Shown here piece after piece: positions 18,686 through 24,920 of a stretch of 64,000 nt of DNA. Position numbers and translations under genes: made by a program. Each line of letters opens with the position of its first letter. Positions within the stretch are counted from its first letter, which is position 1. The notes beneath the pieces were generated by a model. It did no database searches and was not told the origin of the DNA. It worked only from the letters and a program-made list of their open reading frames with translations. This DNA is from an uncultured Candidatus Binatia bacterium (GTDB taxonomy: Bacteria > Desulfobacterota > Binatia > Bin18), in NCBI GenBank assembly GCA_965214605.1, contig OZ243961.1, forward strand, positions 1,920,001 through 1,984,000, in the 5' to 3' direction.

Positions 18686-19462
18686 TTATTGGTCTCTCAC
18701 AGCGTTGACGTGTTTGTGTTCGACACGGATTTCTCTAGCCTTAGCTTCCAGCTCAAGCGCCTCAGCCTGGCGATCTGTTCGGCGCAGTAGTGGCGCGTAC
18801 TTCTCGATGAGCAGGGCGACCGCAGGATGCTTTGCACCGAGTTTTTGTTGTCGGATTTCCAAGGCGCGCTGAAAAATCGGAGCCGCCTCTTCGTCCCTGC
18901 CCTGAGCAACCGCAACCTCTGCTTGGCCGCACAGGGTCGTTGCCACCGAGTGATGGTCGGGCCCAAAAAACCGGGTGCGAATACTGAGCGAGCGCGTGAA
19001 CAGAGCGGACGCCTCATCGTAGCGCGTCTGCTCCATATATACCGCGGCCAGATTATTGAGACAGTTGGTCACCCGCCAATGGTCCGGGCCAACAATGGCC
19101 TCGGCAATGGTCAAGACTTTTTGTAAAAACACCTCGGCTTCGTCCAGCTTGCCGAGCTCGCGGTATAGCGAGGCCAGATTATTCAGGCTCTGGGCGACAA
19201 AAGGATGCTCCGAGCCGTATTTTTCCCGCCGGATATCCAGCGCCCGCCGATAGTGCTGTTCGGCCTCTTGGAGTTTGCCCTGGTTATGGCACAGATTGGC
19301 CAAGTTATTGAGCACCATCGCCACCCGCGTGTCTTTCGGACCAAACCTCTCCACTATTTCCAAGGCCTCACGAAAATGCTGTTCGGCCCGGTCATACACC
19401 CCCTGTTGATACAGACGAAACCCGTCCTCATTGATCTTTTGCCACCGCGTCTCTGTACTCAT
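18686..19462 (-). CDS. Tetratricopeptide-repeat protein (kinesin-light-chain-like 42-aa repeats)
   Basis: Repeated GP.H..VA..LNNLA.LY..QG...EA...Y.RAL.I units; GGGGGAA RBS before ATG 19462. Confidence 0.88.
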   Translation of the reverse strand: MSTETRWQKINEDGFRLYQQGVYDRAEQHFREALEIVERFGPKDTRVAMVLNNLANLCHNQGKLQEAEQHYRRALDIRREKYGSEHPFVAQSLNNLASLYRELGKLDEAEVFLQKVLTIAEAIVGPDHWRVTNCLNNLAAVYMEQTRYDEASALFTRSLSIRTRFFGPDHHSVATTLCGQAEVAVAQGRDEEAAPIFQRALEIRQQKLGAKHPAVALLIEKYAPLLRRTDRQAEALELEAKAREIRVEHKHVNAVRDQ

Positions 19463-19518
19463 ATTCCCCCCTACCAGCCCTGTAATCGAGAGTCGAGCAG
19501 GTCGGTTTGAAAGCCCTC

Positions 19519-20388
19519 TCACCTCTCTTGAGGCTGACTTTCCATAAGCCACTTTTCCATGAGATCTTTGAGTTCTTCAACAGAAAAGACGCCAAGCTCT
19601 TGCCAGGCTGAGCGGACGCCAATGAGCCGCAGAATCTTTTTCAAGGTGCTCGTTTTGAAGACCGGATTCTCTGGGTCCGCTATCCGTTCGGACAAGGCCC
19701 ATATCAGGGCAGTACGGACTTCCCCGTCACCCAAAACGGAATTTCTTGAGACAAGGAGGTTGATTAACTCTTCCCAATACTGCTGCGAATATCCCAAAAC
19801 CTTGGCGACGGATGTCAATTCCGCTCCTGTGTTATCACAGACCTCATTCGCCAGATATCGACGCCACCACGCCCGCGCGAACGGGCAATTTACATAAACG
19901 CTTCTGTTGCCTCGGGCCTCGGGCAATCCGCTCATACGCCTCAACGCCGTGCGGACAGTCCCATCTATTTCCTTGTCACTGCCGTCTTGCAAAGCCTGAC
20001 CAATCCGCGCAAGACCGCTCGACGTACTTCCACTGCCGGCGGCAAGAAAACTCGACTGGATTCTGCCCTCCTTGATATGGCGTAGGGTCATACATCCCCA
20101 AAATCCGACGCGACAGGCAATCGCTGGAGGGATGGACTTCCACAACTCAAAAATCTGTCGCTCGGTACTCTTTGGCGGCTCCTTGAATTCGGCCTCGGTC
20201 AGATTCTCCTCAAGGGTTGGCAGGCCGTCACCGGGCACTATCTCGACCTGTTCTCTCATCCACGCCGAATAACGATCACTCGAGCACAGGACATTCAGAA
20301 ACTCTTTTTGCCTGTCGGACCCTTTTGTTCTGAGAAGGTCTTTACGCAGCGCGGTATAGGAGGCGTCATCAAACTGCTCGTAGTTCAA
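19519..20388 (-). CDS. DUF6339-like hypothetical protein, last gene of the 4-gene cassette
   Basis: FW..MTL and N.PFARAWW motifs recalled for DUF6339-type proteins; TTG start 1 nt after the upstream TAG with GGAGG RBS. Confidence 0.55.
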   Translation of the reverse strand: MNYEQFDDASYTALRKDLLRTKGSDRQKEFLNVLCSSDRYSAWMREQVEIVPGDGLPTLEENLTEAEFKEPPKSTERQIFELWKSIPPAIACRVGFWGCMTLRHIKEGRIQSSFLAAGSGSTSSGLARIGQALQDGSDKEIDGTVRTALRRMSGLPEARGNRSVYVNCPFARAWWRRYLANEVCDNTGAELTSVAKVLGYSQQYWEELINLLVSRNSVLGDGEVRTALIWALSERIADPENPVFKTSTLKKILRLIGVRSAWQELGVFSVEELKDLMEKWLMESQPQER

Positions 20389-20389
20389 G

Positions 20390-21223
20390 CTACCCCTCCG
20401 GTTCTGTCTGAGAAGGTTTGTGGGGATAGCGTTTAGTTGCCACCAAATCAGCAGAAAAATTATCGGCGTCCCAAAGGGGCAGATCGTACCCTTCCAAATC
20501 AGCTGCCAGTGCTTTCAGATTACTGTACTGCTCCCATTCTCTACCACCGTCCTCACTCTGGCCGCTGTAGTCCTTTCTGAGAATCTCAAAGCAGCGACTC
20601 ACAATATGGGTCAGAATGCTACCGCGATGATTTTTGTGCTCTCCAGCGTTTTGGAGAAATTGGCATAAATCCGAAGCGGCAGAGACCTTAAAATAAAATC
20701 CATCATCCGTACACGGAGCCACCTCAAAGCTGCCCGCTGGGAGTTGTTCATTTCGATTGATTTGAAGCAATTCGTGGACAGATGAAGACGGTCTCAAATA
20801 GCCCCGTAATGCCAACCGCGCACCTTTGGGAAACGTGATCTCCCGCCCCTGCCAGACTTCCGCCGCCCCACTGTCGCTTCCCAGGGTACGAGAAATTTCA
20901 GCAACGGAAACAATGAGGGGACGCAGCATGGGCGGCTCACCCACTACGGTCATGTCCAACTTAATGTGCTGACGCTCCTCATCGGAGAGGTGCAACTTTC
21001 GGTGTCCGGTAAGAGGGACTGCAATCAGGCATCCATACCTGGCCTGACCTTGGCGGATCAGGCGGTCCAGAAAAGGGACGTTGCGAACCTTGTGACGGAT
21101 CGTCACGGAAGTGTCGTCGGTCTGTAGTACATCAACCGCATACTCTCCCTCTGGATAAGAGAGATTACCATCTACCAAAACCGGATACGGAAGCGCTCTG
21201 AGAACTTCGCCGGCCCGTGCCAC
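20390..21223 (-). CDS. Hypothetical protein with N-terminal LPYPVL motif, third gene of the cassette
   Basis: 277-aa ORF; GTG start with GAGGAGG RBS 12 nt after the ATPase stop. Confidence 0.75.
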   Translation of the reverse strand: MARAGEVLRALPYPVLVDGNLSYPEGEYAVDVLQTDDTSVTIRHKVRNVPFLDRLIRQGQARYGCLIAVPLTGHRKLHLSDEERQHIKLDMTVVGEPPMLRPLIVSVAEISRTLGSDSGAAEVWQGREITFPKGARLALRGYLRPSSSVHELLQINRNEQLPAGSFEVAPCTDDGFYFKVSAASDLCQFLQNAGEHKNHRGSILTHIVSRCFEILRKDYSGQSEDGGREWEQYSNLKALAADLEGYDLPLWDADNFSADLVATKRYPHKPSQTEPEG

Positions 21224-21235
21224 CGCTGAGCCTCC

Positions 21236-23257
21236 TCATTTTGCAGAATCGCCGGCACGACGAATAATCTCCGTCTTCAGCACGATCGGACTATCGGCGG
21301 AAACGTGAACGCTTTCGGGGAGCTCATAATCAATTTCTATGTTCAGGGGATTATCACGATCAAGGGCACCAAGTCGGACTCCGAGCACACGATTTTTCTC
21401 ATCGCGGATCAGATTTTCACCGGACACCGCTTCACCATCGACTTTGACAGTCTTCAGTCTCACAAATTCTTCACCTCCTACGTCATCGCATGTTTCATCC
21501 AGGCCTTCATCTAACACGAATCGGATTTCGCTGCCGACGCAGCGTTCTTCAGACCTGATGTCGAATCGGTAGGACCGTGCGCCGGTAGGGACGGAAAGTC
21601 CGCGTATCCGAAGGGCATTACCCGTCCGGCGAAAGCTGCCACGTCCGCTCCTGCGCCGACGGCTACCCGTGCCATTTCCTTTTCCTTGGTTTTCAAATTC
21701 GTCAGGATCTAAACCCTCTTCTGTTTGACTCTCGCCTTCGGTCGGTGCTCTGCTCCTCCGTCTTGGCACTTCGCGGAACTTGCCCACTAGAGAAGAACGC
21801 TGTCCACCCGGGGCAATGCCATGTTTACTGATCGACAGGACATCGTGGACTTTGAATTGTTCATTACTCGTAGGGGGAATAATCTCGTGGACTTTAGAGG
21901 CTATTGCTTCCAGAGCTTTGTACACCTGTTTACGTTCGTCTGTCCGAAGTTTTTTCAACGACACTTCATTATGCAGTGGCCCCTCAGCTTTACGCACGAG
22001 GCGATGAATGCTTCCAGCATCTTCGGCTTCAGCCTTGAGCAGTACAACACAATGAAATGGCTTTAAACTGGCAAAATTGGCTTCTCGAAGCTTCCCCGGC
22101 AGCTTATTCGTGATCCACATCCCATTTCGGCATAGCTCAATGCTTGTCTTGCCATCATCTAATTTCCGCAGTTTCAAGGCAACATTACCAACCTCTGTTT
22201 CAACGGAAACGTCATCTCCTTTCTCTACCGTATCGAGCGCAGCAGCAGCCCGAGACCCGGATAAAAACTTGCTATAAGCCCGCCTCTGGTCGCGGTATTC
22301 AGCCAATGTAGCCCTAATAGTAGTATGATCGAGGACCTGAGTTTCGCCTTCTTCCTTTATAAACTCAACTCGAAGTTCTTTCTGTGCAAATGCAGCGAAG
22401 AAATTGCACGCTGCAGCCTTCGATATCATATCCCACAGAGACTTCGATTCACGAAAATCGTTGAATCCCGGAACAGCCACAACGGTGCCTGACTGCCACC
22501 GGTCAGCGATCCACTTCAGCTTGCTCATGATATACTCAGGGATCTCGCTGTTCTGTAGAAAAGTATATGGATCGTACAGGTCTTGGTTGAGGCGCTTGAC
22601 AAAATAGCCGTCCTTACTTTTGCTTACACGTCTGCCGTCCTTACTTTTGCTTACACGTCTGCCGTCCTTGCTTTGGTGGGACGCAAGGATAGCGTGGCCT
22701 GCTGCGATCATCTGCTTCTGTTGAGTCAGACCACCATATAAGACATATCGCAGGTCTGAAGCAGGGATAACAACAAAATGGCCGTTCCCGACAGCACCGG
22801 CACTGTTCTCGCTCTTAACGCTCACCCCATCTGCTAAGATTCCTTTCATCCTAGCCTTATCAAGGCCGATACCATTGTCGAGAATGTACAGGGTCCTACA
22901 CGATTCCGACTTCAGACAAGTCTCAATAGCCTCCACAATGTCCTTTGCTTGGTCAGCCAAGGCGCCATTACGCAACCTCTTTTGAGCCTGCTTCGCACAA
23001 TCAAACGCCTCTCGATACTGCTTGATACCTGGTACCTCATCCAGAGCATGCTTTTTCAGTTCAAAGCGAATACAGGCATCCCGCCCAGCTTCACGTGCCG
23101 CGTCCAATGAATTTTGCATGATCTCCCGAACAATGGCCTCCGGATTAAGGTCACCAAAGGCAGCGATGCCGGCTGCGGTAAAACCCGCGATCTCTCCCCC
23201 CACCTCGAAATGGAGATCAGGGCTTCCCGACCGCCGCTGCTTGTTTTTCTTATTCAT
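21236..23257 (-). CDS. GHKL (MORC/MutL/Hsp90-type) ATPase-domain protein
   Basis: Bergerat-fold boxes IVREIMQNSLDAA (N box), LDNGIGL (G1), SAGAVGNGH (G2), SGTVV; charged linker and beta-rich C-terminal domain; GGAG RBS before ATG 23257. Confidence 0.8.
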   Translation of the reverse strand: MNKKNKQRRSGSPDLHFEVGGEIAGFTAAGIAAFGDLNPEAIVREIMQNSLDAAREAGRDACIRFELKKHALDEVPGIKQYREAFDCAKQAQKRLRNGALADQAKDIVEAIETCLKSESCRTLYILDNGIGLDKARMKGILADGVSVKSENSAGAVGNGHFVVIPASDLRYVLYGGLTQQKQMIAAGHAILASHQSKDGRRVSKSKDGRRVSKSKDGYFVKRLNQDLYDPYTFLQNSEIPEYIMSKLKWIADRWQSGTVVAVPGFNDFRESKSLWDMISKAAACNFFAAFAQKELRVEFIKEEGETQVLDHTTIRATLAEYRDQRRAYSKFLSGSRAAAALDTVEKGDDVSVETEVGNVALKLRKLDDGKTSIELCRNGMWITNKLPGKLREANFASLKPFHCVVLLKAEAEDAGSIHRLVRKAEGPLHNEVSLKKLRTDERKQVYKALEAIASKVHEIIPPTSNEQFKVHDVLSISKHGIAPGGQRSSLVGKFREVPRRRSRAPTEGESQTEEGLDPDEFENQGKGNGTGSRRRRSGRGSFRRTGNALRIRGLSVPTGARSYRFDIRSEERCVGSEIRFVLDEGLDETCDDVGGEEFVRLKTVKVDGEAVSGENLIRDEKNRVLGVRLGALDRDNPLNIEIDYELPESVHVSADSPIVLKTEIIRRAGDSAK
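22607..22669. repeat. In-frame 27-bp tandem duplication (2.3 copies) in the GHKL gene
   Basis: GCCGTCCTTACTTTTGCTTACACGTCT at 22607-22633 and 22634-22660 plus a partial copy; encodes SKDGRRVSK-SKDGRRVSK-SKDG. Confidence 0.95.
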
Positions 23258-23603
23258 TGCTCCGTCTCTCTGATAGATAGCCAATCGTAGATGTCATCAA
23301 TCTCCTCCCTGCTGTGACGTAGCGCTCAATCAACGCCTGCAGCACCTCTCCGTGTTGACGTAACGGCTTCCGGCCTTTCCTTGTGGCGGTCAGGCGTATT
23401 CGGCCCCCGCGACCGTGACTCTCGACCCACACGAACAGCAGCCCTCCGGCCCACACAACTATCTGCCCAAGGTCGGCCCCCAAAGCAGCGAGCGTTGGAC
23501 AGCTACAGTGGCCATCTCAAAATCGGTCATGGTTGTGACCTGAACGCGAGTCGCTAGGCGAAATAATTCCCACCCAAGAGCAAGCAACTGAGGTGCTAGG
23601 CGT

Positions 23604-24920
23604 TTAGTCTGTACAATCGCAGGGCAAAACACTGTCTTCGTAGGGAGAGAGCGCTGTGTCATCATCAGGTAACTCCGCCAGCCGTTTATAGGAAAAACCG
23701 CTTTGTGTCCCAAAAAACCCGATGAAATTATTGGCGACAGTAGCACGAATAGCGCGCCCTTCCGCCTCAAGATCACGGCCGTATCGCTGTTCAATCCCGA
23801 CCCACCAAGCGAGATCGCAGGGCGTATTTTTGAGTCCTACTGTCATGTCCTTCAGGGATACACGCGCTTTGCGCAACCCTCGGATACCTTTGAGGAAACA
23901 GTAGGTACAGTTGGACAGCCCGTTTTCAACGTCGAGCGCTAAGTCCCACGCCTGCTTTTTCCAGAACGTCTCCACATCCTCCTGAGTGATACCCATATCG
24001 CTCAGGGGCAGGTAGACGTGTTCCCCTTCATACCCGGCGGCGTGGACCTCACTGGTGTTGCGTTGTCGCACTCGGATCACACGCCGCATTTCATCGCGCC
24101 GGAGTCCCACGAAAGCAAGATATTCGACGCCCTCAGAGCCGAAATACACCTGGTGACTGAGACTTTCTTTCGTAAGGTAAGGATTTGTGATGGGGCACGT
24201 GGCGGCTGAATAGTCCGCAAACCGCTGTGCTGACCGAAACACTGGCCGTGACCGAACAAACCGCTTTTTCTCCAGAAAAATGTCCCGGGGAACCTCCCCC
24301 TTATGGCGTAGGTGATGTTCGTACATTTCGTCGTCGTCAAGACGGCTGTTCTTCCCAAAATGGCCAAGGCGTTCGGTGTGCGGCTTACAGGTCAACCAAT
24401 CCTTCAGAAATGCTCTGGTCGTCTCGAGCTTGAGGCGCGAGGTGCAGGTACGTCTGAATTGGTTCGGCGCATACCCCGTCCAGGACAGTAGTTCCTCAAA
24501 GGCTTCGCCACGCCAACAGTATCCATCTGTATTTGTCTCAGAGCGGGGAACGGGCTGAACGAGGCGGTATGAGGGCAGGCGTACCCACTCCCCGTTTCTC
24601 GCATCCTCATAGGTCTGAAATTCGACGAGAAAAAACGGGAGACCATAGCGATTTTCGACAAGCTCTTTACAACGACTCACAAATTCATAGGTGGCGGGAT
24701 GCTCGGCAGACGTGTTGTTGAACACCACTACATCACCCCGTTCGGGCTGTAAGAGACCGGCTTCGAGCAGGACAAAGAGCATCATGCCGCTCGTCCTGCC
24801 GCCTGAAAACTTGACAACGTGGGGCAGATCTTCATGGCCGGACAGGTCGTACCAGAATAGCTGATCCGCGCCGTGCTTCCTTCTCAGTTTCGGGACCGCT
24901 CTTATCCCTCGCCCAGTCAT
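23604..24920 (-). CDS. PAPS-reductase/DndC-like PP-loop (adenine-nucleotide alpha-hydrolase) protein, phage/defence-island type
   Basis: VVKFSGGRTSG PP-loop, FNNTSAEHPATYEF, CTSRLK, GLRRDE, SNCTYCFLKG, terminal PCDCTD. Confidence 0.82.
   Translation of the reverse strand: MTGRGIRAVPKLRRKHGADQLFWYDLSGHEDLPHVVKFSGGRTSGMMLFVLLEAGLLQPERGDVVVFNNTSAEHPATYEFVSRCKELVENRYGLPFFLVEFQTYEDARNGEWVRLPSYRLVQPVPRSETNTDGYCWRGEAFEELLSWTGYAPNQFRRTCTSRLKLETTRAFLKDWLTCKPHTERLGHFGKNSRLDDDEMYEHHLRHKGEVPRDIFLEKKRFVRSRPVFRSAQRFADYSAATCPITNPYLTKESLSHQVYFGSEGVEYLAFVGLRRDEMRRVIRVRQRNTSEVHAAGYEGEHVYLPLSDMGITQEDVETFWKKQAWDLALDVENGLSNCTYCFLKGIRGLRKARVSLKDMTVGLKNTPCDLAWWVGIEQRYGRDLEAEGRAIRATVANNFIGFFGTQSGFSYKRLAELPDDDTALSPYEDSVLPCDCTD

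Follow-up and report, generated by a model that had tools for sequence, protein, structure and literature searches.

In the TdpABC system, TdpA is a hexameric translocase and TdpB is a nuclease. The system was reportedly described by An et al. in Nat Chem Biol in 2025, together with an adenylated DNA-backbone intermediate. DndC is said to have been recognised by You et al. in 2007 as an iron–sulfur (Fe-S) protein. PMC12914056 names four established phosphorothioate systems, Dnd, Ssp, Tdp and BREX type 4, and states that tdpC, a single pyrophosphatase-loop (PP-loop) gene, suffices for phosphorothioate synthesis in the Tdp system. Here we describe a PP-loop gene in a 64,000-nucleotide stretch of DNA from an uncultured Candidatus Binatia bacterium (assembly GCA_965214605.1, contig OZ243961.1), called the window below (C1:1920001-1984000 in genome coordinates). 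We found that this gene heads a conserved cassette, in which it takes the place that a C5-cytosine methylase holds in a sister system. With slightly more confidence than doubt, and judging from sequence, we read its product as a DNA sulfurtransferase that marks the cell's own DNA, probably with phosphorothioate, within a system resembling restriction-modification. The cassette occupies window positions 19519-24920 on the minus strand and is composed of the following elements (E, expectation value).

23604..24920, minus strand: PP-loop gene, an open reading frame (ORF) with an ATG start, 438 amino acids (aa); it encodes an SspD/DndC-like PP-loop ATP pyrophosphatase and belongs to a new, unnamed family
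23285..23603, minus strand: spacer between the PP-loop gene and the GHKL gene, 319 bp (about 346 bp with the start of the database M33A, P0122)
21236..23284, minus strand: PDC-M33A homologue, a GHKL (Bergerat-fold) ATPase of 682 aa (PADLOC E 1.5e-35)
20390..21223, minus strand: PDC-M33B homologue, 277 aa, no known domain (PADLOC E 4.9e-9)
19519..20388, minus strand: PDC-M33C homologue, 289 aa, all-alpha, DUF6339-related (weak PADLOC match, E 8.9e-4)

The initial annotation had placed the PP-loop gene outside any sulfate-assimilation context and missed that it heads an operon of four same-strand genes, three of them conserved partner genes; a view of the gene as having no context has to be given up. 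We compared gene order in 37 related loci, drawn from genomes that belong to many phyla: in 30 of them the PP-loop gene is followed by M33A, M33B and M33C, in this order; three others are cut by the end of the DNA, and four are without M33ABC (L002, L029, L033 and the fragment L037). A cysteine desulfurase of the DndA/SspA type comes right after the PP-loop gene in 33 of the 37 loci, and in 32 of these 33 it sits between the PP-loop gene and M33A (L002 has no M33A). The desulfurase of L007, for example, was matched by the PADLOC models SspA (E 1.4e-139) and DndA (E 9.8e-139). By their record titles, the 37 loci come from metagenome-assembled genomes (MAGs) of Gammaproteobacteria, Alphaproteobacteria, Deltaproteobacteria, Binatia, Bryobacterales, Vicinamibacterales, Spirochaetia, Latescibacterota, Dehalococcoidia and Longimicrobiales. 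The cassette is found in them at 49-62% protein identity, and such a distribution over many phyla fits horizontal spread. The G+C (guanine plus cytosine) content of the cassette stretch in the window is 0.52-0.53, versus 0.55-0.59 around it.

The exchange of a methylase for the PP-loop gene was seen in 66 metagenome loci collected by a scan with the M33A alignment, whose ORFs were searched with five cassette profiles, a methylase profile and the M33 proteins of locus L130. The window's branch comprises the 29 loci L075-L103 (M33A profile score 227-868 bits), and the canonical PDC-M33 branch comprises the 31 loci L104-L133 and L140 (phmmer above 110 bits against the L130 M33A); six further loci, L134-L139, gave matches too weak for assignment and enter neither count. 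The results showed that the PP-loop gene is adjacent in 24 of the 29 loci of the window's branch and in 0 of the 31 canonical loci, whereas a C5-cytosine methylase is present in 0 of the 29 and in 29 of the 31, directly upstream and on the same strand in 27. Those five loci of the window's branch that show no PP-loop gene (L092, L093, L098, L101 and L103) all lie on contigs too short on one side to exclude one, and the two canonical loci without a methylase lie on contigs that begin at M33A or 320 nt before it. A Vsr-like gene was found in no locus of the window's branch and in 14 of the 31 canonical ones. A desulfurase accompanies 12 of the 24 PP-loop metagenome loci and none of the canonical loci; among the 12 that have none, L085 and L087 end too soon to tell. 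The methylase of the canonical branch belongs to PF00145 (five loci were scanned, with E between 1e-66 and 1e-71), and the three M33 proteins of L130 score 4.6e-144 (A), 6.5e-63 (B) and 3.5e-58 (C) in PADLOC, with DUF6339 at E 1.4e-50. Across these 60 loci, one three-gene machine pairs with a methylase or with the PP-loop enzyme, and the two never occur together as separate genes. In the window, the three downstream genes match PDC-M33 A, B and C in order; what differs is the companion gene, a methylase upstream in the canonical loci and the PP-loop gene, accompanied or not by a desulfurase, in the window's branch.

PDC-M33 is defined in PADLOC by three genes, and in the loci that we compared it nearly always forms a larger unit of five genes, namely a C5-cytosine methylase, M33A, M33B, M33C (DUF6339) and often Vsr. 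The near-constant methylase and the frequent Vsr gene make canonical PDC-M33 look like a methylation-based restriction-modification system. Searches of the open-access literature and bioRxiv found no paper naming DUF6339.

In addition to the exchange, 3 of the 150 best family representatives are fusions (P0282, P0278 and P0277). The 823-aa protein P0282, encoded on a 1.5-Mb contig, contains a complete C5-methylase (PF00145, E 3.9e-70) with the FSGIGG, SPCQ and ENV motifs, joined to a PP-loop domain that is itself intact (363 bits) and contains SGGRSS, CTVNLK, CVFC and CSCTD. In P0278 and P0277, only the C-terminal part of a methylase is joined to the PP-loop domain. All three are single-member clusters, so a gene-calling artefact is possible for any one of them. 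Since the gene replaces a C5-cytosine DNA methylase and is fused to one in P0282, its context supports a nucleic-acid target, which the initial annotation had proposed.

The gene product resembles SspD in its motifs. In the 438-aa translation, FSGGRTSG lies at residues 38-45 (SGGRTS at 39-44), CTSRLK at 159-164, RAFLKDWL at 169-176, YLAFVGLR at 267-274 and CTYC at 338-341; the protein ends in LPCDCTD, with Cys434 and Cys436 (CDC at 434-436). The PP-loop, cysteine and flanking motifs that had been listed beforehand are thus all present. Pairwise alignment with the canonical SspD of the same genome (284 aa, PADLOC E 3.3e-138) paired HV..SGGRTS with HV..SGGRDS, R.CTSRLKL with R.CTRQLKL, R.DE with R.DE, S.CTYCF with S.CTFCF, and the C-terminal cysteine pair CDC with CLAC. 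The order shared by the two proteins is therefore SGGR[TD]S, RxCTxxLKL, RxDE, SxCT[YF]CF and a C-terminal cysteine pair. The SGGR form of the PP-loop, which the initial annotation had reported as an oddity, is indeed there, but it is normal for the SspD-like group because the canonical SspD of this genome reads SGGRDS. As the motif set equals that of SspD, phosphorothioation is the ordinary expectation, and the new chemistry once suggested for this protein finds no evidence. The only PADLOC matches of the PP-loop protein are SspD (E 7.8e-8), BrxP (E 2.3e-5) and DndC (E 7.4e-4), and hhalign of the family against the genome's SspD gave 85% probability with an E value of 6e-6 over 100 columns.

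General models of the superfamily recognise the protein poorly. Pfam PAPS_reduct (PF01507; PAPS, 3'-phosphoadenosine 5'-phosphosulfate) scored 17.6 bits against a gathering cut-off of 22.5 (E 0.004, residues 34-88 only), and among 120 relatives listed, 5 have a precomputed PF01507 match; the NCBIfam DndC model TIGR03183 gave 15.4 bits against a cut-off of 290.4. We also calculated a quick maximum-likelihood tree of 35 rows, made up of 20 of the 57 family rows (the window's protein and every third of the others), 9 SspD and 4 DndC proteins from genomes of the same phylum, and an outgroup of two, the strong PAPS_reduct proteins that the genome encodes. Each of the three groups (new family, SspD, DndC) came out as a single clade (Shimodaira–Hasegawa-like approximate likelihood-ratio test, SH-aLRT, 99). 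Clustering with assimilatory reductases, which had been named in advance as an outcome that would speak against the sequence-based proposal, was not seen in this tree, where the PP-loop proteins form their own clade, apart from the genome's CysH- and CysD-like proteins. The score below the Pfam cut-off, the separate clade and the defence cassette bear out the description of a non-canonical, non-assimilatory member of the PAPS-reductase/DndC/SspD group.

The protein differs from each of its best-known relatives. SspD has the same motifs in the same order, is the best PADLOC match and also has an SspA/DndA desulfurase as partner, but it is 284 aa long, whereas the protein here has 438 aa with two family-specific inserts and falls in a separate clade. 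DndC is similar in the CTxxLK region (the PADLOC DndC match covers residues 149-176) and in its DndA-type desulfurase partner; it likewise forms a separate clade, and DndD and DndE lie outside the conserved core here. With TdpABC, as described in PMC12914056, the cassette shares a single PP-loop gene beside a small restriction module, but the module here consists of three genes with a GHKL ATPase. CysH is alike in fold (Z 10-11.7) and in a cysteine-bearing C-terminal tail that aligns up to the chain end, and differs in its ECGLH motif, in lacking the large inserts and in its sulfate-assimilation context.

The fold was examined with an AlphaFold model made from a 57-sequence alignment (predicted local distance difference test, pLDDT, 89.6; predicted template-modelling score, pTM, 0.91). 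The best VIA-align match was yeast PAPS reductase 2oq2_A (Z 11.7, root-mean-square deviation 3.3, 194 aligned, model residues 10-438), followed by CysD 1zun_A (Z 10.9), 7rge (Z 10.6) and the adenosine 5'-phosphosulfate (APS) reductase 2goy_A (Z 10.1). The [4Fe-4S] tRNA thiolases NcsA (Z 9.6-9.7) and TtuA (Z 8.4-9.1), the QueC-like Cap9 (9nto_B, Z 8.4) and flavin adenine dinucleotide (FAD) synthase were also among the structural matches. On this model, the whole core of the protein belongs to the PAPS-reductase branch of PP-loop enzymes. Foldseek of the same model against the PDB gave N-terminal matches of about 70 residues only (E>=0.011), and the family profile against PDB sequences gave only chance matches (a 14-3-3 protein, E 8e-4).

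All 19 sequences compared, the most distant at 37% identity, have S39, G41, R42, S44, D63, C159, T160, K164, R274, D276, E277, C338, C341, C434 and C436; 18 of them have G40, and C84 and C368 are not kept. The number of invariant cysteines (C159, C338, C341, C434 and C436) is sufficient for an Fe-S cluster, as had been suggested. In assimilatory CysH, the C-terminal ECG[LI]H motif forms a catalytic tail, and in yeast PAPS reductase the catalytic cysteine is located in a flexible C-terminal tail. The ECGLH tail is missing here, in agreement with the first description of the protein, yet an invariant cysteine-bearing tail takes the end of the chain: CxCT[DE] makes up the last five residues in all 19 sequences. 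The segment between RAFLKDWL and YLAFVGLR, previously taken for an insertion, proved to be a true, family-conserved insert in the alignment with the genome's SspD, as the two motifs are about 90 residues apart here and about 10 there. This insert of about 85 residues (at about 177-266) is one of two that are specific to the family, the other being a 30-residue beta-hairpin upstream in the model (about 96-125). Within the large insert, G186, H203, G208, P211, K218, R229 and Q232 are invariant in 57 sequences. Its median net charge among the 57 members is +4, and being only mildly basic it offers no argument for DNA binding.

The ATG at 24920 was adopted as the start because a start at Met46 would remove the PP-loop. 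The database copy of the protein, P0001 (393 aa, 90% coverage), apparently starts at Met46; residues 22-45, within the part that P0001 skips (window 24786-24920), are conserved among relatives, which makes the longer ORF the better model. We found 1369 relatives of the protein at E<=1e-3 among 6428 candidates scored, all of them called 'hypothetical protein' where the source names them. An exhaustive profile search returned 1679 cluster representatives at E<=1e-3, 942 at E<=1e-10 and 176 at E<=1e-30, and a pattern scan of the viral contig set found no phage copies of the family. A second, weak relative is present in the same genome (G000:C1:2265217-2265851; L049 7157-8079), with 36% identity over residues 30-174 and 33% over 306-349. 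Its coding sequence runs across two overlapping frames, so that it may be a frameshifted pseudogene.

In the mechanism that we favour, ATP would be bound at SGGRTS and a target oxygen adenylated, preferably a non-bridging oxygen of a DNA backbone phosphate. Sulfur would then replace the adenylated oxygen to give a phosphorothioate. The sulfur would come from a pyridoxal phosphate-dependent cysteine desulfurase, cassette-encoded in most relatives, and in the window's genome it would be supplied in trans by SspA or IscS-type paralogues. Cys159, Cys338 and Cys341 appear to occupy the positions that cluster ligands have in Fe-S PP-loop enzymes; sulfur may pass via the invariant cysteines, and the terminal Cys434-x-Cys436 tail may act as a swinging persulfide carrier, like the C-terminal cysteine tail of PAPS reductase. 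M33ABC, a GHKL ATPase with two other proteins, would be the restriction part, attacking unmarked DNA and sparing marked DNA.

Several points weigh against this proposal. The likeness to SspD and DndC is weak and does not extend beyond short motifs and the N-terminal half: the SspD model scores 30.4 bits over positions 2-54 of 277, and the genome's true SspD scores 458 bits over 1-277. The stems in the tree are very long, so that long-branch joins are possible, and the branching order of the three clades is not settled. A [4Fe-4S] cluster held by C159, C338 and C341 would be a placement read from cysteine spacing only. According to PMC12914056, Dnd, Ssp and BREX type 4 require a PAPS-reductase-like enzyme and a P-loop NTPase, and the only ATPase of the conserved core here is the GHKL protein. 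With the genome's SspB and SspC as tblastn queries, no relative was detected beside the PP-loop gene in any of the 66 family loci (E<=1e-3). The cassette of the window has no desulfurase gene. PDC-M33 is only a candidate in PADLOC, and no paper naming it was found in the open-access literature and bioRxiv; no known structure matches the M33C fold (best E 0.58 with Foldseek, best Z 5.9 with VIA). Finally, the methylase exchange and the fusion fit a base modification as well as a backbone one.

This last point leads to a reading that we hold unlikely but keep in view, in which sulfur is placed on a DNA base and not on the backbone, for example by thiolation of the cytosine carbonyl, much as Fe-S enzymes of the PP-loop type act on tRNA bases, and still serves as the self mark for M33ABC. 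With a similarly low probability, the mark would be a sulfur (or adenylyl-derived) modification of the cytosine base, targeted in the manner of a C5-methylase and read by a GHKL-driven restriction complex. A cytosine-base mark would explain why the PP-loop gene replaces a cytosine methylase and in some proteins is fused to one. The Z scores of the tRNA thiolases NcsA (9.6) and TtuA (9.1) are near that of PAPS reductase (11.7), and the M33 proteins of the window's branch are far from the methylase-linked ones (16-55 bits, phmmer), as expected if they read a different mark. However, the best family-level matches are the phosphorothioation enzymes SspD, BrxP and DndC, with no base thiolase among them, and the motif order is that of SspD. 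To our knowledge, no natural thiolated DNA base has been described.

A little less probable again is a sensing or effector role without any DNA marking, such as adenylating or thiolating a protein or a nucleotide in the manner of the QueC-like defence PP-loop enzymes. It would accord with Cap9 among the structural matches, with M33B and M33C partners that have no assigned function, and with a permuted gene order: PP-loop-(DndA)-A-B-C is commonest in the window's branch, but A-B-C-PP-loop-(DndA) is also found, M33ABC coming first in L083 and L085-L089. The mutual exclusion of methylase and PP-loop gene over the 60 loci, the existence of a fusion to a DNA methylase and the dedicated DndA/SspA-type desulfurase that accompanies the gene argue against such a role.

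Doubtful, too, is that the window's copy is a decaying remnant that has lost its desulfurase and the DUF262 gene of its closest relatives. The nearest loci, L001 (62%) and L012 (59%), have two genes, DndA and DUF262, in the interval from the PP-loop gene to M33A, where the window has only the spacer of about 320 bp, and tblastn detected no remnant of DndA or DUF262 in that spacer (best E 0.75). On the other hand, none of the four window genes is truncated, and each retains all the invariant residues of its family. DndA-free cassettes are also found elsewhere, in 12 of the 24 metagenome loci and in a Nitrospinae MAG, where the PP-loop gene and M33A have adjacent locus tags. The genome encodes three full-length cysteine desulfurases, SspA among them, and PMC12914056 reports that Dnd and Ssp use IscS in trans. 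The DUF262/GmrSD_N genes between desulfurase and M33A encode proteins of 560-617 aa with PADLOC matches to HEC-05, PDC-M55C and NsnA, and their product may be an extra modification-sensing effector. They are located as follows.

L001, 10506-12188: DUF262/GmrSD_N gene
L008, 10488-12341: DUF262/GmrSD_N gene
L012, 10419-12134: DUF262/GmrSD_N gene

That the protein serves metabolism, either as an assimilatory PAPS/APS reductase or in some other sulfur or cofactor pathway, as its best structural matches (PAPS/APS reductases, CysD and FAD synthase) might suggest, has a negligible chance given the score below the Pfam cut-off, the absent ECGLH tail, a clade apart from the genome's CysH/CysD-like genes and a defence-type operon found across many phyla. 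No cysH or cysD gene occurs within the window, as the initial annotation had noted in finding no sulfate-assimilation genes nearby; the genome's two strong PAPS_reduct genes lie outside it, at C1:1184477 and C1:2884515.

As for the partner genes of the sulfurtransferase that we propose, E54/N58/D61, D136-N-G-x-G140 and G163/G166/G168 are invariant in 30 M33A sequences, and 14 of these 30 members give weak HATPase_c matches. The window's M33C matched DUF6339 with an E value of 0.004, below the cut-off, and its model (pLDDT 86.7) is all-alpha. Searches of PDB sequences with the M33B and M33C profiles and with M33A returned nothing of note, and the look-alikes of M33B and M33C in the ESM Atlas were all weak or without a name. 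PDC-M33A was matched in 4 of 401 genomes of the window's phylum, and the two loci inspected (G110 and G076) have no orthologous cassette by tblastn. We found no paper in the open-access literature and bioRxiv that combines phosphorothioation with GHKL, MORC, HATPase or Bergerat, and the consulted text of Rakesh et al. 2024 contains none of the terms phosphorothioate, GHKL, MORC, HATPase and Bergerat. An identity of M33ABC with SspFGH was considered and rejected, as SspF has a Walker A motif and SspH is FtsK-like according to PMC8092258.

A complete canonical locus of SspA (minus strand), SspB, SspC and SspD lies at C1:2063468-2069922, about 119 kb from the PP-loop gene, so that the genome would hold two separate systems of the sulfur-modification type. 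Following SspABCD (region C1:2063468-2077252, L048 3468-17252) are genes for a 716-aa sigma-70 region-4 helix-turn-helix protein, for PbeA (HKD-helicase), for a PbeC-like CxC-ABC ATPase and for a 161-aa protein. A module of PbeA, a CxC-ABC (DndD-like) ATPase and a DndE-like protein also adjoins the cassette at 7 of the 37 related loci, and in L003 the PbeA/CxC-ABC module lies between the PP-loop gene and M33A. According to PMC10853773, this module was first described beside dnd genes, was re-annotated by Rakesh, Aravind and Krishnan, and also occurs on its own. Since it occurs alone too, its company with the cassette counts as supporting evidence only. Downstream of the cassette, a protein with tetratricopeptide repeats (TPR_12, E 2e-63) is encoded at 18686-19552 on the minus strand and overlaps the 3' end of M33C by 34 nt; its gene does not adjoin the cassette in any of the 37 related loci. 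A scan of the window for promoters and terminators stayed at chance level, and the window contains no tRNA genes.

If the sulfurtransferase reading is true, the cassette would be a further phosphorothioate system beyond Dnd, Ssp, Tdp and BREX type 4, distinguished by its own PP-loop family (176 clusters at E<=1e-30, in many phyla), by the lack of a P-loop NTPase partner and by a GHKL-ATPase restriction module. The pairing of M33ABC with a methylase in one branch and with a PP-loop enzyme in the other would then be a natural experiment, in which a restriction machine has been re-tuned from a base mark to a sulfur mark. The sister systems lend the candidate PDC-M33 a testable logic, and the compact enzyme, with or without its desulfurase, could be a simple tool for placing sulfur in DNA.

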